From positions 1 to 28,085 of the IMG/VR virus record IMGVR_UViG_3300049982_000030: DNA of 28,085 nt; one strand, given 5' to 3'. Shown here one piece after another: positions 7,277 to 17,966 of this stretch. A program made the position numbers and the translations under genes. Under the pieces are notes generated by a model. The model searched no databases, was not told the origin of the DNA, and was given only the letters and a program-made list of their open reading frames with translations. The DNA comes from a virus. Its lineage: Duplodnaviria > Caudoviricetes. The first letter of the stretch is position 1. Each line of letters starts with the position of its first letter.

Positions 7277-7467
7277 GCAAGACCACAGACCGCGCGGCCA
7301 CCGCCGCTGGACTCGTCCTCGGTGCGGCCCTCGTCGGCTACCCCGTCGGTGCGCTCCTCGCCCGCCGCTACCTCGCCACACCCATCACCGCCACGCCGGC
7401 CAAGCCCTACAGCCAGAGCGACGCCGTCGTCACCAGCATCAGCAACCTGAAGGGAGCGGGCAAGTGA
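7273..7467 (+). CDS. Small membrane protein
   Basis: ATGA coupling; hydrophobic AAGLVLGAALVGYPVGALLA. Confidence 0.6.
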   Translation: MSKTTDRAATAAGLVLGAALVGYPVGALLARRYLATPITATPAKPYSQSDAVVTSISNLKGAGK

Positions 7468-8051
7468 TCATCGCCGGACTCGACACCTCGCTCACCTCAA
7501 CCGGGCTCGTCCTCATCGGGACCACCCCCGACCTGGACTGGCGGGTCAAGCTCCACCGGGTCGAGAGCAAAGCGCCCACAACCGGCCGCGACCAGAAGAC
7601 CGGCAAGAAACTCGCACCGACCCTGAAGCAGCGCCTCGACCGACTCACTGACATCGAAGACGCCATCGTCGCGCGCCTCAACGGCGTCACCTTCGCCGTC
7701 ATCGAATCACCATCCTTCGGCAGCGTCGGCTCAGCGAGCCGCGACCTCGCCGGCCTCTGGTGGCGCGTCGTCGGCAAACTCGACGGACTCGGCATCCCCG
7801 TCGCCGAAGTCTCCCCGTCCGGCCGCATCAAGTACGCACTCGGCACCGGGCGCGGTGACAAGGACCGCGTCCTCGCCGCCGTCATCAAGCGCTACCCCGA
7901 CCTCGATGTCACAGGCAACGACGTCGCCGACGCCCTCGTGCTCGCCGCGATGGGCGCCAGGTGGCTCGGCCACCCGATCGAAGACTCACTGCCCGCCAAC
8001 CACATCGCAGCAATGGACGGCGCGCACTGGCCCGAGGCGGTGGCGGCATGA
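7464..8051 (+). CDS. ruvC: RuvC-like Holliday junction resolvase
   Basis: IAGLDTSLTSTG, AVIESP, KYALGTGRGDKDRV and DVADAL catalytic pattern. Confidence 0.9.
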   Translation: MIIAGLDTSLTSTGLVLIGTTPDLDWRVKLHRVESKAPTTGRDQKTGKKLAPTLKQRLDRLTDIEDAIVARLNGVTFAVIESPSFGSVGSASRDLAGLWWRVVGKLDGLGIPVAEVSPSGRIKYALGTGRGDKDRVLAAVIKRYPDLDVTGNDVADALVLAAMGARWLGHPIEDSLPANHIAAMDGAHWPEAVAA

Positions 8052-9370
8052 CGGACCTTCAGGTGGTGTCCCTCTTCGCCGGGATCGGCGGCATCGACCG
8101 CGGCCTCGAACTCGCCGGCGCATCCACCGCACTCCTGTGCGAGAAGGACAAACACGCCCGCAACATTCTCGCCCGCCACTACCCACAGGCGGTCATCCAC
8201 AACGACGTAACGGAGCTCACCGCCGATGACTGCCGAGCAGCTGGAGCTGTACCCGGACGAACCGTCCTCACCGCTGGCTGGCCATGCCAAGGCAACTCCG
8301 TGGCGGGCGCTCGTGGGGGCATGGACGATCCACGCTCAGGTCTGTGGTCGCATGTCGTGCGCCTGCTGGCTGAACACCGTCCCGCCTGGTTCATCGGTGA
8401 GAACGTGCCTGGTCTTCTCTCCGTCAACGACGGACGAGACTTCTCCATCGTCGTTCACGACCTGGCCCGCCTCGGGTATGGGTTCACCTGGCGGGTTCTG
8501 GACGCTCGACACTTCGGAGTCCCCCAACGGCGCCGTCGCGTCGTCATTGTCGGACGTCTTGGAGACACCGGGGCCGCAGCTGCACAAGTACTACTTGAGC
8601 CCGAAGGCCTGTCAGGGAATCCTGCGGAGGGCATCGAACCGCGGCCGCGTCTTGCCGGCGATGCTCGAGAGAGCGTTAAGGCTGGTCGCTGGCACGCAGA
8701 CATAGCGCCGACGCTCAGCGCGCCCAGCGGAGGGAGCCGCCGGTACGGCACCGACGCAGACACTGCCGAGTCGCTGGTGGTGGTTGGGATCCTCGGAGAC
8801 CAGACCCACACCCTGACCGCAGAAGGTCACGATGCCAGTGAAGACGGCACGGGGCGCGGCACACCGGTCATCGCCTACGCGCCCACCTTCGTGCCGGCTC
8901 TGACCACGCGATCCGGCAACACCCAGGATGACCAGCAGACCGGGCAGGTTGTCGCCTTCGATCTACGCGGCCGGGACGAGGGAGCGCTGCCCGAGGTCCA
9001 CCGCGACGGCTCCACCGTCGGGAGTCTCCGCGCGGCCGGAGGTGGCTCCTCGCGGGACTACATCGCGTTCGCTGAGAACCAGCGCGGCGAACTGGCGATC
9101 AACCCGACTATGCCAGCGCTCAAGGTCGGCGGCGGGAAACCGGGTCAGGGTTACCCGGCTGTCACTGACGGCATGATCGTCCGCCGCCTCAGCCCGCGGG
9201 AGTGCGAGCGCCTCCAGGGCCTCCCTGACGGATGGACCGAGGGTCAGGCCGACTCGCAGCGTTACAAGCAGCTCGGCAACAGCGTCGCCGTACCCGTCTT
9301 CGAATGGGTCGGACGCCGGCTCGTGGCCGTCGACAACCAACTCAACGCACCGGTCCTGAAGGGGGCCTGA
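8048..9370 (+). CDS. DNA (cytosine-5) methyltransferase
   Basis: Motif I LFAGIGG, IV GWPCQG, VI ENVPG, VIII PQRRRR, IX RRLSPRECERLQG, X YKQLGNSVAVP. Confidence 0.96.
   Translation: MTDLQVVSLFAGIGGIDRGLELAGASTALLCEKDKHARNILARHYPQAVIHNDVTELTADDCRAAGAVPGRTVLTAGWPCQGNSVAGARGGMDDPRSGLWSHVVRLLAEHRPAWFIGENVPGLLSVNDGRDFSIVVHDLARLGYGFTWRVLDARHFGVPQRRRRVVIVGRLGDTGAAAAQVLLEPEGLSGNPAEGIEPRPRLAGDARESVKAGRWHADIAPTLSAPSGGSRRYGTDADTAESLVVVGILGDQTHTLTAEGHDASEDGTGRGTPVIAYAPTFVPALTTRSGNTQDDQQTGQVVAFDLRGRDEGALPEVHRDGSTVGSLRAAGGGSSRDYIAFAENQRGELAINPTMPALKVGGGKPGQGYPAVTDGMIVRRLSPRECERLQGLPDGWTEGQADSQRYKQLGNSVAVPVFEWVGRRLVAVDNQLNAPVLKGA
8226..8705 (+). CDS. Nested +1-frame ORF, putative C5-methyltransferase beta subunit
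   Basis: 159 aa fully inside the MTase gene; GGAG upstream; C-terminal SSLSDVLE...KYYLSPKACQGILRRASNRGRVLP.MLERAL is MTase-like; host-frame codon usage is distorted over the overlap. Confidence 0.72.
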   Translation: MTAEQLELYPDEPSSPLAGHAKATPWRALVGAWTIHAQVCGRMSCACWLNTVPPGSSVRTCLVFSPSTTDETSPSSFTTWPASGMGSPGGFWTLDTSESPNGAVASSLSDVLETPGPQLHKYYLSPKACQGILRRASNRGRVLPAMLERALRLVAGTQT

Positions 9371-9375
9371 TTCCT

Positions 9376-9651
9376 ATGCAACGCAACGAGATGAACCCGC
9401 GCCACTGGCGCGACTTCCTCGCCGTACTCGACACCGTCGAACGTGGCCGCGAGGTATCCAGCAACCACCTCCGCGACCTGCTCGCGGCAGCCGACATCCC
9501 CGAGAAGTCCCGCGGCGGACTGTTCGCTCAGGCTGCGAGCCAGGGCTACCTGAAGCGGGTCCGGTACGAGCCGTCCACCGGCGACACGGCCAACCGCTCG
9601 GTGATCTGCATCTACAAGCGCACACGCCAGCAAGGACCGGTGGCCGCATGA
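9376..9651 (+). CDS. Hypothetical protein, probable winged helix
   Basis: Helical N-terminus then GGLFAQAASQGYLKRV...IYKRT; coupled to thyX. Confidence 0.65.
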   Translation: MQRNEMNPRHWRDFLAVLDTVERGREVSSNHLRDLLAAADIPEKSRGGLFAQAASQGYLKRVRYEPSTGDTANRSVICIYKRTRQQGPVAA

Positions 9652-10364
9652 CCACCATCACGATCCACAGCGACGTCGACGTGCAACTCGTCGAGTCAAT
9701 GGCATCCGACAAGGCCGTCGCCGACGCCGCCCGGGTCAGCGTGATCGGCGACGAGACCCTGACCCGCGAGGTCGACACTGCCGCCGACGCCGGACTGATC
9801 GGCTACCTGATGAAGAACCGGCACGGCACCCCGTTCGAGCACAACGCCTTCAAGTTCTACGTCAAGGCACCGATCTTCGTCTTCCGCGAGTTCCACCGCC
9901 ACCGTGTCGGGTTCTCCTACAACGAGATGTCCGGCCGCTACACCGAACTGCCGGGAGAGTTCTACATCCCCGCCGCCGACCGGCCGCTCGTTCAGAAGGG
10001 CAAGCCGGGCGCCTACGAGTTCGTCACCGGCAGCCATGACCAGCACCTGACCATGCACTGGTCGATCCACCGCGCCTACGAGACGGCCTGGGTTGTCTAC
10101 CAGGACCTGCTCAAGCAGGGCATCGCCAAAGAGGTCGCCCGCATGGTGCTCCCGGTCGGGATCTTCAGCCAGATGTACGTCACCTGCAACGCCCGGTCGC
10201 TGATGTCGTTCCTCAGCCTCCGCACCAAGGACGCCTCCAGCACGTTCCCGTCATACCCGCAGCAGGAGATCGAGATGGTCGCCCGCCGCATGGAGAACGC
10301 CCTCGCCGAGGCGATGCCCATCACCCACCACCACTTCCAGAAGAACGGGAGGGTCGCGCCGTGA
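9648..10364 (+). CDS. thyX: Flavin-dependent thymidylate synthase
   Basis: AARVS, HGTPFEH, ThyX signature RHRVGFSYNEMSGRY, EVARMVLP, NARSLMSFLSLR. Confidence 0.96.
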   Translation: MTTITIHSDVDVQLVESMASDKAVADAARVSVIGDETLTREVDTAADAGLIGYLMKNRHGTPFEHNAFKFYVKAPIFVFREFHRHRVGFSYNEMSGRYTELPGEFYIPAADRPLVQKGKPGAYEFVTGSHDQHLTMHWSIHRAYETAWVVYQDLLKQGIAKEVARMVLPVGIFSQMYVTCNARSLMSFLSLRTKDASSTFPSYPQQEIEMVARRMENALAEAMPITHHHFQKNGRVAP

Positions 10365-12005: not shown

Positions 12006-12256
12006 CGCACGCAGCACTCCCGGGCGGGTGGCGGGCCATCACGCTCCAGGACATCGTCCGCGGTGAAGAACCGCTCGAGCGCGGCCTCCACAACGTCGGC
12101 CTCCGTGGCACCGAGAAGGCGAAGGCCGAGCAGGACCTGGCCGAAGCGCGCGCCTCGTACCTCGCCGGCGACGTGACCACCGCGCTGGCAGTGGCCGCGA
12201 GTATCGCCGAGGAACTCCAGACGACACGGCAGCCAGGAAGGGGAGCGGCCGCGTGA
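12002..12256 (+). CDS. Hypothetical protein
   Basis: Coupled at both ends; SD GGAGG. Confidence 0.6.
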   Translation: MTHAALPGGWRAITLQDIVRGEEPLERGLHNVGLRGTEKAKAEQDLAEARASYLAGDVTTALAVAASIAEELQTTRQPGRGAAA

Positions 12257-13008
12257 TGCCGTACTACGCCGACGACTCTGTCACGCTGTATCACGGCGAT
12301 TTCCGCGAGTTGCTGCCCATCCTCGCGATCACCGCTGACCTCATCGTCGCTGACCCGCCCTACGGTGAAACCTCACTCGACTGGGACAGCTGGATCGACG
12401 GCTGGCCCTCAATGCTCACGCCGTACTCCAATGCGATGTGGTGCACCGGCTCCATGCGCATGTTCATGGACCATCGAGACGAGTTCGCCAACTGGAAGCT
12501 CTCACAGGACATCGTGTGGGAGAAGCACAACGGCTCCGGGCTACACGCCGACCGGTTCCGCCGCGTCCATGAGTTCGGGCTTTTCTGGTATCAGGGCAGC
12601 TGGGACTCGCTCCACCACGTGACACCCACAGTGGACCAAGCCGTTCGCAGAACCCGGCGATCGAAGCGTCGCCCGCCACACCTTGGGCACATCGACGCAT
12701 CACCGTACTCCAGCGAGGACGGCGGGCCACTGCTCATGACCTCGGTCATCTTCGCCCCCTCGATGCATGGCCGCGCCATCAACGAGACCGAGAAGCCCAC
12801 CGCGCTGCTCGAGCCCCTGATCTCCTACGCATGCCCTGTCGGCGGTCTGGTGCTCGACCCGTTCGCCGGGTCATCGTCCACTCTCGATGCCGCTCGCAAC
12901 CTTGGTCGGCGCGCGGTCGGAATCGAGAAGCGCGAGAGCCAGTGCGAGAAGGCAGCCAACCGGCTCTCGCAAGGCGTCCTGATGTTCGAGGACGGTGGTG
13001 CCGCGTGA
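12253..13008 (+). CDS. DNA N4-cytosine/N6-adenine methyltransferase (beta class)
   Basis: TLYHGD, DPPY catalytic motif, then TEKP and VLDPFAGSSST SAM-binding motif. Confidence 0.93.
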   Translation: MMPYYADDSVTLYHGDFRELLPILAITADLIVADPPYGETSLDWDSWIDGWPSMLTPYSNAMWCTGSMRMFMDHRDEFANWKLSQDIVWEKHNGSGLHADRFRRVHEFGLFWYQGSWDSLHHVTPTVDQAVRRTRRSKRRPPHLGHIDASPYSSEDGGPLLMTSVIFAPSMHGRAINETEKPTALLEPLISYACPVGGLVLDPFAGSSSTLDAARNLGRRAVGIEKRESQCEKAANRLSQGVLMFEDGGAA

Positions 13009-13523
13009 TGACCATCGGCAACATCAAGGCCGCCGCCGCGGTCGTCCGCACCATCCGCGAGGACTGGGACCAGCGCGCCGTCACCGACCAAGTCAACACG
13101 CTGGCCGCCGAATACAACCACCGCGACGTCGTCTACGCCTGCATCACCATCGCCGAAGACCTCAACAACCGGGCCCCGATCACCCTGTCAATCAAGGCCG
13201 CCGACGTCATCGCGAAGCTGCACGAGAAGACAAAGATGCCGCGCATGTTCTCAGCCGGCCGGCGCGACGACGCGTTCCTGTGCGACACGTGCAGCAAGAC
13301 CGAATCGAACTGCATGTCCGCCGCGACGAACCTCGACGGGTGCGACCACCTGTTCAAGTCGATCCGGCAAGCCGAAGCCGAACGCGAGAAGCAGCGCCTC
13401 GTCAACAGCCCTGAGCGGATGGAGGCGAAGGCCGAGTTCGCCCGCCACAAAGGCGACCTGTTCGCCATGCCCGCCGACATCGACCAGCCACAACACCCCG
13501 AACCCGAACAGGAATCAGCATGA
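13008..13523 (+). CDS. Hypothetical protein, possibly replication-associated
   Basis: TGATG overlap (alternative GTG 13005); helical domain IREDWD...NRAP plus CDTC...C...CDH. Confidence 0.65.
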   Translation: MTIGNIKAAAAVVRTIREDWDQRAVTDQVNTLAAEYNHRDVVYACITIAEDLNNRAPITLSIKAADVIAKLHEKTKMPRMFSAGRRDDAFLCDTCSKTESNCMSAATNLDGCDHLFKSIRQAEAEREKQRLVNSPERMEAKAEFARHKGDLFAMPADIDQPQHPEPEQESA

Positions 13524-14266
13524 GCACGACGATCGAGTGGACCGAGACGGTCTGGAATCCAACCACCGGATGCGACCGGATCTCGGCCGGGTGCGACAAC
13601 TGCTACGCCCTCAAGATGGCCAAGCGGCTCAAGGGCATGGGGTCGGCCAAGTACCAGACCGACGGCGACCCACGTACCAGCGGCCCGGGCTTCGGAGTCG
13701 CGATACACCCGGACGCACTGACGATCCCGCTCCGGTGGCGCAAGCCGCGGACCGTGTTCGTCAACTCGATGTCGGACCTGTTCCACGCCCGCGTCCCGCG
13801 CGACTTCGTTGCTCAGGTGTTCGACGTGATGGCATCCACACCGCAGCACACCTACCAGATCCTCACAAAGCGGCCAGAGCGGGCCAGGCGCGTCCTGGCA
13901 AGTTTGGCCCCGACCCCGCTGCCCAACGTCTGGCTCGGCACCAGCATCGAATCCGACGATCACGTGCGCCGTGCCGACGCCCTCCGCAACACCCCGGCCG
14001 CCATCCGGTTCATCTCCGCTGAGCCGCTACTTGGACCGCTTCCGTCGCTCGACCTGACGGGCATCGACTGGCTGATCGCTGGTGGCGAGTCCGGTCCGGC
14101 CGCGCGCCCGATGCAGGACGAGTGGGTGCGGGATCTCCGCGACCGCTGCCGTGATGCGGGAACCGCCTTCTTCTTCAAGCAATGGGGAGGGCGCACTCCC
14201 AAGGCCAACGGTCGCGCGCTCGACGGCCGCACCCACGACGCGTACCCGGTGCCCGCCACCGCCTGA
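13520..14266 (+). CDS. DUF5131 / phage Gp37-Gp68 radical-SAM-like protein
   Basis: IEWT..VWNPTTGCDRISAGCDNCYA (Cx6Cx2C), FVNSMSDLFH, QILTKRP, GGESG, FFFKQWGG. Confidence 0.92.
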   Translation: MSTTIEWTETVWNPTTGCDRISAGCDNCYALKMAKRLKGMGSAKYQTDGDPRTSGPGFGVAIHPDALTIPLRWRKPRTVFVNSMSDLFHARVPRDFVAQVFDVMASTPQHTYQILTKRPERARRVLASLAPTPLPNVWLGTSIESDDHVRRADALRNTPAAIRFISAEPLLGPLPSLDLTGIDWLIAGGESGPAARPMQDEWVRDLRDRCRDAGTAFFFKQWGGRTPKANGRALDGRTHDAYPVPATA

Positions 14267-14298: not shown

Positions 14299-14676
14299 AT
14301 GCCCTACCTGATGATGGACGACAACTTCGCCGACCACCCCAAAATCGAGGGGCTGTCCGACGGCGCGTTCCGTCTCCACGTCGCAGCCATGTGCTACGCC
14401 GCGAAGTTCCTCACCGACGGCGCAATCCCCGCGGTGCGCGTCGCGCGCCTCGCACCCCGGTACAGGCCGGCGCTGCTCAAGGAACTGCTCAAGGCGGGGC
14501 TGTGGGTCGAGCACGACCAGGACTACAAGATCCACGACTACCTGCAGTGGAACAAGCCCCGCACCTGGTGGCAGAAGGAGCGTGCAGCGGCAGCCGAACG
14601 GCAGCGTGTGCACCGCGAGAAGAAGGCCCGCGAACGACGCGAAGCCGAGGAACGCGACGGTGATCCAGATGCGTGA
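14299..14676 (+). CDS. Replication initiator-like winged-helix protein (N-terminal domain only)
   Basis: SD GAGGAG; DDNFADHPKI..LSDGAFRL...TDG...L..AGLW...IHDY..WN...AERQRVHR matches actinophage RepA-like N-termini. Confidence 0.75.
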   Translation: MPYLMMDDNFADHPKIEGLSDGAFRLHVAAMCYAAKFLTDGAIPAVRVARLAPRYRPALLKELLKAGLWVEHDQDYKIHDYLQWNKPRTWWQKERAAAAERQRVHREKKARERREAEERDGDPDA

Positions 14677-14840
14677 GTCACCCCGTATGTCACGCCGTGA
14701 CAAACGCCGAACCAACGGTGTGAGTCACCCCCACCCAGACCAGACCAGACCAGAGAAGTACTTAACTCACCTCTGCTTGTGGTCCAGGTTTAGGGGTTTT
14801 TCAGTCCAAGACTTTGATCGAAAACGCCACTACCTAACAC
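14673..14840. repeat. Putative replication origin
   Basis: GTGAGTCACCCC twice (14673, 14720), palindrome TGTCAC-GCC-GTGACA (14688-14702), CCAGA x4 (14735-14754), then a visibly AT-richer tract. Confidence 0.6.
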
Positions 14841-14854
14841 GCGAGGGGCACAGG

Positions 14855-15238
14855 ATGAGCACCGAAAACGAGACGGAAACCGAGGCGAAGTCGTTCGCCC
14901 AGATGCAGTCTGAGATCCGCGAAGTGAACGTCGCGAACGGCTGGTACGACGGAGCCGAGCGTCCCTTCGGTGACGACGTCTCGCTCCTGCACTCGGAGGT
15001 CTCCGAGATGTACGAGGCGTTCCGGCAGTGGGGTCTGGACGACGCCACCGTGCAGGAAAGTGCACGCGGTACGGGGCAGCCGCCGAAGCCGGAGGGTGTA
15101 GGTAGCGAAGCCGCTGATGTGCTGATCCGGCTGCTCGACACCTGCGACCGGCACGGCATCGACCTGGGCGCCGAGTACGAGCGGAAGCTCGCACACAACC
15201 GGACCCGCGGCTACCGACACGGAGGGAAGCGCGTATGA
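14855..15238 (+). CDS. MazG-like nucleotide pyrophosphohydrolase
   Basis: LLHSEVSEMYE...EAADVLIRLLD...K...NRTR..RHG; SD GAGGGG before ATG 14855. Confidence 0.88.
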   Translation: MSTENETETEAKSFAQMQSEIREVNVANGWYDGAERPFGDDVSLLHSEVSEMYEAFRQWGLDDATVQESARGTGQPPKPEGVGSEAADVLIRLLDTCDRHGIDLGAEYERKLAHNRTRGYRHGGKRV

Positions 15239-16539: not shown

Positions 16540-16856
16540 GCGCGGTTGAACTGGAGGCGCAGGCGCTGGTGGATCCGTTGCTCATCACGCACCTTGACGA
16601 GGACTGGGCTGTGCCGTGCGAGTCGAAGCGGCACTACACCAGCGGCTGCAAGGGCCTCAATCCGGCCGAATGGACGCTCCAGTTCGTCGGCTGCTGCCCG
16701 CGGTCGCCGCTCGGGTTCATGCTCTGCGAGCCGTGTAAAGCCAAGCTGCTCGCCGACCCGGCGATGTGGTGCAACCACTGCTCGGCCGTATTCCAGCCGC
16801 CGTCGACCGCGTTCCGCCTGATCGAACCCCTGAACCGGAGGACGCCGCATGCCTGA
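16536..16856 (+). CDS. Cys-rich hypothetical protein
   Basis: ATG 16536; CES..H...C, CC, CEPC, CNHC. Confidence 0.65.
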   Translation: MSAVELEAQALVDPLLITHLDEDWAVPCESKRHYTSGCKGLNPAEWTLQFVGCCPRSPLGFMLCEPCKAKLLADPAMWCNHCSAVFQPPSTAFRLIEPLNRRTPHA

Positions 16857-17739
16857 GACCGAGGAACGCTTCACGACCTCACTGGAGCACGTCAGCAGGG
16901 TGGAAGCCCTAGAGGCCGCCAGCGGCCTTCTAAGGCTCCAAACCGCCTACACGGCCCACGCCCCATCCGAGTGCCTGAACGGCTGCGAGAGCCGCCAAAG
17001 CTCGCCAGCGAGCAAGGTCCACTGCGAACCCGGCCAGCTTCTCTGCCCAAGATGCGGCGCGAGGGTGGACAAGTGGCTCCGGGCCATCCCCGACGCGTTC
17101 GGCCGCCTGCTCTGGGTCAAGGACCACGGCACCGTCCAAGCAGACCCCGGCACCAAGCACACCAAACGCCCCGACCCGCCCGCCCCCATGCGGCTCGAAG
17201 TCACCGACCTCCTCGACACCAGAGACGGCCGCGGCGTGCTCGGCGTAGTCCACTCGTGGGCCGAACTCGTCCGCGACCAGCGCCACGACACCAGGCCCTG
17301 CACCTGCAGCCACGCCCGGCCGTCCCACACCGAGAACCGGTGCTCCGCGATCGGCTGCGCCTGCCACGACTACACGCCCGTCACAGCCACCGTCACCCGC
17401 GAATGCGCCTACCTGATCACCAACCTCCCGTGGTGCACGCAGCAGGAGTTCGCCGGCGACCTGTACAGCGAGATCAAGCAGCTCGCCCGCACCCTCGACG
17501 ACACGATCGGCGAGTACCGGCCCAAGCCCGTCGGGTCCTGCGCTGCACTGCGCGACATGCCCGACTCGACCGTGCAGGTGCTCTGCGGGGGAGCACTCGT
17601 CATGGAGAAAGAATCCCGGTCCGTCAAGTGCTTGCGCTGCGGCAGCAGGCACGAAGCCAACGAGCAGCTGCGGGCGCTCGGGCTGATCGTGGGTGCGATG
17701 TTCGGGGACAATGGCAACAACCACCTGGAGGCATCATGA
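16849..17739 (+). CDS. Multi-zinc-finger protein, candidate late-gene regulator
   Basis: SD GGAGG; LCPRC, PPAPMRLEV.DLLD, SWAELVR, GSC...CGGAL...CLRCG; family typically ends actinophage early operons. Function is inference. Confidence 0.7.
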   Translation: MPETEERFTTSLEHVSRVEALEAASGLLRLQTAYTAHAPSECLNGCESRQSSPASKVHCEPGQLLCPRCGARVDKWLRAIPDAFGRLLWVKDHGTVQADPGTKHTKRPDPPAPMRLEVTDLLDTRDGRGVLGVVHSWAELVRDQRHDTRPCTCSHARPSHTENRCSAIGCACHDYTPVTATVTRECAYLITNLPWCTQQEFAGDLYSEIKQLARTLDDTIGEYRPKPVGSCAALRDMPDSTVQVLCGGALVMEKESRSVKCLRCGSRHEANEQLRALGLIVGAMFGDNGNNHLEAS

Positions 17740-17966
17740 AGCAACGGATCGCCAACGCTCTCCGGAGCATGGCGGACAGGCTCGACCCGCCGCCGCCACC
17801 AGCCCTGGCTCCCCAGACATTCAGGATCACCGAGCCGGTGTTCTCGCCCGAGCAGGTGGCCCGCATCGGCAAGCAGATCGCCGAGGTCATGAAGAACCGC
17901 CCGAAGCTCAACATCCCAGTCCTACCGAGCCCGCCCGCACCCCCAGCACCCCGGAGGCTGAAATGA
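17736..17966 (+). CDS. Pro-rich hypothetical protein
   Basis: SD GGAGG; ATGA overlaps. Confidence 0.6.
   Translation: MKQRIANALRSMADRLDPPPPPALAPQTFRITEPVFSPEQVARIGKQIAEVMKNRPKLNIPVLPSPPAPPAPRRLK

Follow-up and report, generated by a model that had tools for sequence, protein, structure and literature searches.

The cytosine methyltransferase gene of this phage holds a second open reading frame of 159 codons in its +1 frame, and the locus raises the question of whether this nested frame encodes a protein and, if so, what that protein contributes to the enzyme. The window, by which we mean the whole stretch of 28,085 bases analysed here, is a virus sequence estimated to be about 52% complete, with 68% G+C. 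Pfam and PHROG searches find in it terminase, portal, capsid, ThyX and RuvC-like genes and a WhiB-like match, and because of this gene set, including the WhiB-like match, and the G+C content, it probably comes from an actinobacterial phage. The methyltransferase gene has as its neighbours the RuvC-like gene, a small ORF without assigned function and ThyX (Table 1), and Pfam and PHROG searches recognised no restriction endonuclease among the ORFs scanned adjoining it. Judged by what is established for phage methyltransferases, the enzyme is likely an orphan, possibly multispecific, anti-restriction methyltransferase that modifies phage DNA at one or several sites; counts of tetranucleotide palindromes gave no hint of a methylation target. 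A modification and nucleotide-metabolism cluster lies near the gene, comprising ThyX, a second (N6/N4) DNA methylase (12253-13008), a DUF5131 gene (13520-14266) and a pyrophosphatase-like gene (14582-15238). Elsewhere in the window, a 296-aa gene (16849-17739; phrog_1467/908, function not known) has a +2 frame open for 294 codons, where an overlapping 331-aa ORF (16971-17966) without a Pfam match is found, +2 frames being frequently open at this G+C content.

Table 1. Positions of the two overlapping frames, their parts and the flanking genes in the window
Feature	Position	Strand	Basis or remark
RuvC-like resolvase gene	7464..8051	+	phrog_159, E 4.2e-41; stop overlaps alpha start
Alpha, C5 cytosine DNA methyltransferase, 440 aa	8048..9370	+	PF00145, E 3.9e-62; TIGR00675 above cut-off
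GGAG, Shine-Dalgarno-like, 10 nt before beta ATG	8212..8215	+	Sequence; within alpha motif III codons
Beta, nested ORF, ATG start, 159 aa	8226..8705	+	+1 frame of alpha (8226-8048 = 59x3+1)
Beta core, W80 to about residue 158	8463..8699	+	W-x-x-S-G-M over alpha motif VII; L-S-D-V-L-E helix over motif VIII end; KYYLS-helix-helix beyond
Alpha linker, codons about 185-219, sequence dictated by beta frame	8600..8705	+	Codon-change counts; low pLDDT
Alpha variable region with about five diverged cassettes of the T-L type, which are candidates for target-recognition domains in tandem	8708..9175	+	Four by pattern, fifth (THTLTAEG) by eye
ThyX thymidylate synthase	9648..10364	+	PF02511, E 1.2e-46; downstream of alpha

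The long frame, alpha, carries motifs I-VIII, the variable region and motifs IX and X in a single ORF that runs uninterrupted through motif X, and with the catalytic PC, the ENV and the motif VIII arginines present its C5 methyltransferase motif set I-X is complete. Motif IX is found at residues 379-390 (nt 9182), which bears out the first-pass annotation, made from the letters alone, in its statement that the long frame retains its own motifs IX and X. The AF2 model of alpha superposes on M.HhaI (1fjx_A) with Z 30.2 and rmsd 2.1 over 239 aligned residues, so that an M.HhaI-like fold is predicted; the variable region is modelled with low confidence and pLDDT is below 50 from about residue 185, although for the linker a low pLDDT is also expected from the shallow alignment. 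Some of the alpha analyses, including the Pfam and PHROG searches and the AF2 model, were run without the first Met, and their residue numbers are one lower. With all ten motifs in place and a model that fits M.HhaI even when beta is left out, alpha could be an active enzyme by itself.

The nested frame, beta, had been described as an ATG-initiated ORF with an upstream GGAG lying wholly inside the methyltransferase gene, and this is what we find. An in-frame TAA at 8208 shuts the +1 frame five codons ahead of the ATG. The extent previously given, from just before motif IV to just past motif VIII, is right in placing beta inside the gene but not in its limits, as the first codon of beta comes shortly after motif III and its last some 50 codons beyond motif VIII. 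The stop was also correctly placed against the variable region, the first T-L-type cassette beginning at 8708, 3 nt past the beta stop at 8705, but what begins there are diverged units with cross-scores of 17-28, not sequence repeats. Residues 1 to about 78 of beta are variable and predicted to be disordered. The core that follows has invariant or near-invariant columns at L108, L112, E113, L124, S125, A128, G131, I132, R134, R135, A136, R139, L143 and P144, and the C-terminal pattern SSLSDVLE-x7-KYYLSPKACQGILRRA...LPAMLERAL is present as first reported. A model of beta gives confident helices over residues 108-158, with pLDDT 89-98 for residues 121-159; its best fold comparison reaches an uninformative Z of 3.3, among only 10 chains (Foldseek-derived). 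Nothing in Pfam, PHROG or NCBIfam matches the beta of the window, and a beta profile run against PDB sequences gives no hit at E up to 10. The first match in the ESM Atlas, a cluster bearing the name DNA cytosine methyltransferase (0.91), was discounted as evidence for beta, since a genuine gene read in the wrong frame may give such a score.

Is the nested frame a coding frame? ORF length by itself was rejected as evidence, as an open frame is not rare in a genome of 68% GC: two other genes of the window hold +1 stop-free runs of 158-159 codons, and for the window alone the open frame has a P of about 0.10 under synonymous recoding. Since the open frame alone is unremarkable in the window, the case for coding rests on conservation. 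With alpha as query, the best 80 of 178 viral loci were taken. Motifs IV-VI could be parsed in 75 of 81 loci, and in every one of these the +1 frame runs without a stop through 11 or more codons ahead of the ENV motif and 98 or more behind it. Dereplication at 80% left 47 loci, window included, of which 45 had been picked without reference to beta and two through beta. All 47 are open, against 8.5 expected from recoding that preserves the alpha amino acids, and under the same null 89.5 stops are expected over this stretch around the ENV motif, where none is observed, although the 47 loci, being related, are not 47 independent trials. The +2 frame of these loci holds 110 stops, the +1 frame none in 3,642 codons. 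Bacteria and archaea supplied a second, independent group of 80 loci, selected by motif IX patterns; 76 of them were parsable, and 72 of these have an open +1 frame.

The silent sites of alpha point the same way. At fourfold-degenerate alpha codons in 40 sequences, third-base identity is 0.61-0.70 over alpha 140-219, that is, over the beta core, and 0.31-0.37 outside the overlap (motifs I-III, variable region, motifs IX-X). Across alpha 173-218 in five close pairs, the alpha frame has 11 silent against 101 replacement codon changes, while the beta frame has 57 against 69; over motifs IX-X in four pairs, it is the alpha frame that is rich in silent changes (58 silent, 49 replacement) and the frame of beta that is not (16 and 97). 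The beta-frame-silent pattern past motif VIII therefore indicates that selection there acts on beta. Residues 1-76 of beta show 31 silent against 141 replacement changes and thus no constraint at the protein level beyond the absence of stops. A shadow effect has to be allowed for, in that alpha imposes part of the beta conservation over motifs VII-VIII, where a closed-frame control (L152) scores 9.9 bits. The A/T-rich third positions noticed earlier over the overlap are also real: host-frame GC3 is 97/160 (61%) there, compared with 51/59 before and 181/221 after it, and 81-94% in seven other genes of the window. The +1 frame is under purifying selection, and we regard it as very nearly certain that beta is a real protein. 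Zero stops in 47 loci, frozen silent sites and the silent/replacement flip uphold the view of the first-pass annotation that the nested ORF is a real coding frame, and both signs proposed for checking it, an uninterrupted +1 frame (47/47) and suppressed synonymous variation across homologues, have been found.

The first-pass annotation had taken M.EcoHK31I as its model. According to PMC2836561 and PMC3404938, this enzyme of E. coli HK31, which recognises YGGCCR, has a beta chain that is nested in another frame of the alpha gene, is required and bears motif IX. PMC2836561 further reports that beta initiates at its own ATGs, that beta deletions to residues 41-50 weaken binding to alpha, raising the Kd to 2.4-7.1 uM, and abolish activity in vitro, and that a steep loss of activity separates deletion 70 from deletion 69. 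These deletion points map to residues 84-93 and to L112, a near-invariant column, of the window beta. The window beta has three ATGs, at codons 1, 43 and 85, and in EcoHK31I starts within the chain gave rescue. Primers in the supplement of PMC2836561, read by eye, place W-S-N-S-G-M at residue 37 and L-S-Q-V-L-E-T at residue 65 of EcoHK31I beta; W80 and L108 of the window beta are likewise 28 apart and overlie motifs VII-VIII in an identical +1 register. The full EcoHK31I layout, in which beta reaches motif IX and alpha is without it, occurs in the related loci L183, L197, L199 and L202-L204, and the window beta is 38% identical to that of L183 over 112 residues (E 1e-17), while the variable regions of the two differ. 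From the spacing of the primer motifs and the identity to L183, the window beta is therefore the front half of an EcoHK31I-type beta, homologous and in register, a half which by the deletions matters in EcoHK31I, so that the choice of model was apt and the comparison suggested with EcoHK31I beta has given a positive answer (primer motifs by eye; L183 as an EcoHK31I-type locus). As in M.EcoHK31I, the small chain lies entirely in an alternative frame, its coding being judged here from selection, and it is homologous to EcoHK31I beta by way of the primer motifs and L183; motif IX is not moved from the large chain to the small one, which stops at 8705. The principle is known from one enzyme, EcoHK31I, and by its sequence the window locus is a variant of it without motif IX in beta. 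The motif IX pattern we used was too narrow ('not found' in 37/149 loci), and the counts of layouts are lower bounds.

The nested frame is widespread. Searching with a profile built on 41 betas brings up 7,344 clusters (50% identity), of which 5,292 pass E 1e-10, and beta is matched by 134 GenBank phage records and 530 plasmid records, where among the matches listed the only names are those of the host gene or hypothetical protein. A search for related loci with beta alone as query returned one locus. P1 dmt, P7 dam and Omega gp127 all have the nested frame uninterrupted (103-112 bits to the beta-core profile), each being annotated in its record as one gene with the nested frame unannotated; the accessible part of PMC12707154 mentions P1 dmt solely as a Dam substitute. 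A literature search that did not extend to REBASE or to journals behind subscription, the P1 genome paper among them, gave no report of a widespread nested beta, a beta without motif IX, the fused form described below or the P1 dmt frame.

Several departures from this layout were seen among the relatives. In 18 viral loci (e.g. L038, L049, L058, L060, L062 and, in part, L065-L080) alpha ends 12-129 residues past motif VIII and an ORF of its own further downstream carries motifs IX-X, with beta still nested; motifs IX-X are likewise split off beside a nested beta in Omega gp127/gp128 (L083:2326-3630), and all of these are likely three-chain enzymes. Another type of nested +1 chain, which contains P-T-P motifs and whose end resembles motif IX (L087:2417-3304, L088:1962-2447, L056:3149-3703), is missed by the beta profile, and the alpha of these loci is short and keeps motif X. 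In a Nocardioides genome (L182:2423-5414), a nested-type methyltransferase stands beside HNH-like and Vsr-like genes recognised by eye, so the nested layout apparently occurs in restriction-modification loci as well. Five proteins of 267-277 aa (P0029, P0030, P0043, P0053, P0082) have the beta core behind a LAGLIDADG-like endonuclease domain, a call based on a listed PF00961 match for P0082 and made by eye for the other four; possibly these are homing endonucleases that invaded the beta frame of a methyltransferase. Switches between the alpha and beta frames near motifs VI-VII or past the beta core are seen in L016, L028 and L034 and in P0072, P0088, P0096, P0114 and P0117, several at G-runs, and may be assembly errors, pseudogenes or slippage-prone sites.

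The loci in which the nested frame has been lost bear on what beta supplies. There are four closed genome loci. One of them, L181, has a truncated beta, cut after the L-S-D-I-L-E helix. In the other three (L192, L233, L236) the +1 frame is broken by stops, while alpha is intact and carries the whole beta core, from W-x-x-G to the last helix, in frame after motif X. Their fused cores reach 42-57 bits, with scores of 91-108 against shuffled maxima of 52-57, and their target-recognition segment is shared with the nested-type L182 and L186. A beta core after motif X is present in 66/66 related proteins of about 450 aa, 64 of which also have motifs IV, VI and VIII. From these fusions it follows that the module is retained free of the overlap, on the chain of the catalytic domain. 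Among the 210 parsed of 226 loci, the module is nested in 158, fused in three and strongly matched in both frames in none, in a tally whose profile was built from 41 of the sequences and in which L226 is irregular, two analyses having parsed it in different frames.

Single-chain enzymes offer a second comparison. Their +1 frame is closed by 1-10 stops in 40 Dcm-like loci (about six distinct sequences) and in six others, and in the Dcm-like genes and L152/L154 a T-L-x-x-L-L...KY-x-L-helix follows in frame right after motif VIII. Compared profile to profile, beta 87-140 matches the Dcm-type segment after motif VIII with E 3.5e-4; against Dcm alone the main beta profile gives E 0.025, with 2-8 bits per sequence, and four single-chain controls (L148-L151) give no match. 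A bridging clade (L131-L146) matches the main beta profile with P 99.7%, and the beta of L131 ends in the GNGFG that is also found in Dcm; run against 70 targets, the profile of this clade has its best eight matches all in post-motif-VIII segments and none in a nested-type alpha. Residues 69-179 of L183 beta resemble positions 179-300 of TIGR00675 (E 4e-5), beginning just past the end of the alpha match. An hhalign match of the N-terminal half of beta to Dcm motifs VI-VII was rejected as same-position shadow similarity, and an hhalign result of 90.7% is inflated by shadow text over motifs VII-VIII. We therefore describe the Dcm likeness of the beta core as weak but specific. In C5 methyltransferases the small domain begins with the segment after motif VIII, the first helix of which is packed close to motif IX. 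The role of beta looks structural rather than that of an optional accessory, regulatory or specificity subunit, because its core is fused when the nested frame is lost and resembles a segment of the single-chain enzymes, and because the T-L cassettes stay in alpha; on the same grounds we depart from the first-pass annotation, which had proposed such an optional subunit.

The cassettes, which may be target-recognition domains, recur one by one in 1 to 83 of 160 related loci, counts that are biased because three cassettes overlap the patterns used to search for the loci. Distant relatives have them in common piecewise and in differing combinations, which suggests that target-recognition units are shuffled among relatives.

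Taking these results together, we consider it likely that the locus encodes a two-chain C5 methyltransferase in which beta is a required structural subunit and supplies the start of the small, DNA-binding domain. As far as sequence comparison reaches, it is established that both frames are intact, that the +1 frame is selected and homologous to EcoHK31I beta, and that the core joins the main chain when the frame is lost. We further infer translation from the ATG at 8226, a heterodimer, contact of the beta helices with motif IX and the cassettes, and methylation that depends on beta. Ribosomes would most likely start at 8048, coupled to the stop of the upstream RuvC-like gene, and again at 8226; the separately initiated beta of 159 residues would bind alpha, its core contributing the helices with which the small domain begins; on the domain completed in this way motif IX and the cassettes would fold, and the alpha/beta pair would methylate phage DNA at one or several sites.

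Three other explanations have to be weighed against this two-chain enzyme. Beta may be real and bound to alpha but not needed for catalysis, tuning instead the level, stability, processivity or cassette choice of the enzyme. Such a modulator would fit the observations that alpha keeps motif IX, the only element with which the accessible literature credits EcoHK31I beta, that alpha models as a complete catalytic domain, and that the beta core is a basic helical module (ILRRA-x-x-RG) which could touch DNA. Retention of the open frame in 72/76 loci with in-frame fusion in the three intact exceptions is better explained by a required part, and the position of beta is that of a structural segment in single-chain enzymes, so that we think a dispensable modulator improbable. 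The +1 frame might alternatively be reached by frameshifting or slippage, giving an isoform that joins the N-terminal part of alpha to the C-terminal part of beta, as the first-pass annotation also suggested. In some database proteins alpha motifs I-VI do run on into the beta core, in several cases at a G-run after motif VI (P0072, P0096, P0114), but these could equally well be assembly errors or pseudogenes, and the window has no G-run at that place. An SD-like word with an ATG for beta is present in 27/47 loci, a count without a chance control, which leaves 20/47 without this pair; on the other hand, the ATG is conserved at the same codon in seven loci (L002, L016, L034, L037, L062, L071, L083), EcoHK31I beta uses its own ATGs, and a hybrid product would be without motif VIII. 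We do not favour a frameshift isoform and consider it very unlikely.

The remaining explanation is that conserved alpha codons merely keep the +1 frame open and nothing is made from it. The unremarkable P for the window alone and the shadow similarity that exists over motifs VI-VIII would be expected from such shadow text, but the null that preserves the alpha amino acids predicts 89.5 stops where none is seen, the silent sites of alpha are frozen, and the core persists in the fusions, in a frame free of alpha overlap. This explanation is already largely refuted and in our opinion scarcely credible.

Beyond the window, we find on balance rather probable a wider reading in which a very large branch of the C5 methyltransferases, with P1 Dmt among its members and thousands of clusters spread over phages, prophages and restriction-modification systems, consists of obligate two-chain enzymes, whose unannotated +1 chain forms the structural start of the small domain. 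Its module would have three interchangeable states: it may follow motif VIII in line, be overprinted on motifs VII-VIII or be fused behind motif X. Beta would be defined by this module and not by motif IX, and EcoHK31I, which the accessible literature treats as an isolated case in which motif IX comes from the small chain, would be a member and not an oddity. If this is true, enzymes of a major branch of phage C5 methyltransferases, P1 included, as a rule contain a nested subunit that has no name, and this subunit has a different and more basic job; annotation would change accordingly, as no Pfam, PHROG or NCBIfam family contains beta. Recoded or codon-optimised genes would lose beta and test inactive, and synthetic recoded genes may thus yield false negatives in methyltransferase screens. 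The locus would also be one of the rare overlaps in which both frames build one enzyme, its natural fused and nested sisters would show overprinting arising and being undone, and they may offer natural split points for engineered targeted methyltransferases.

Comparison with known systems places the window gene as follows. E. coli Dcm, M.HhaI and M.HaeIII (TIGR00675) have the same catalytic motifs and fold as alpha, but in Dcm-type enzymes the segment after motif VIII belongs to the main chain, whereas in the window it would be supplied from the second frame and its counterpart in alpha is a linker shaped by beta. SPR and phi3T are multispecific C5 methyltransferases of Bacillus phages; they likewise have a long variable region of tandem T-L-type cassettes, and are single chains, while the window gene is a candidate two-chain enzyme. 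P1 Dmt, P7 Dam and Omega gp127 have the same intact +1 ORF as the window gene, P1 Dmt being further fused to a Dam domain that the window alpha does not have. In M.AquI, by the account in PMC3404938, two polypeptides form one enzyme, as we propose here, but the small chain is the distal variable region with motifs IX-X and comes from a separate gene, while the window alpha is one ORF; an AquI-like split on top of the nested frame is found in the 18 viral relatives and Omega gp127/gp128, not in the window. M.EcoHK31I comes closest, since there too the gene of the large chain encloses all of the small one, which spans motifs IV-VIII in the +1 frame. In contrast to that YGGCCR enzyme, the window locus is a phage gene without a recognised restriction endonuclease adjoining it, and its beta is about 60 residues shorter and has no motif IX, while its alpha carries motifs IX and X together with about five cassettes.
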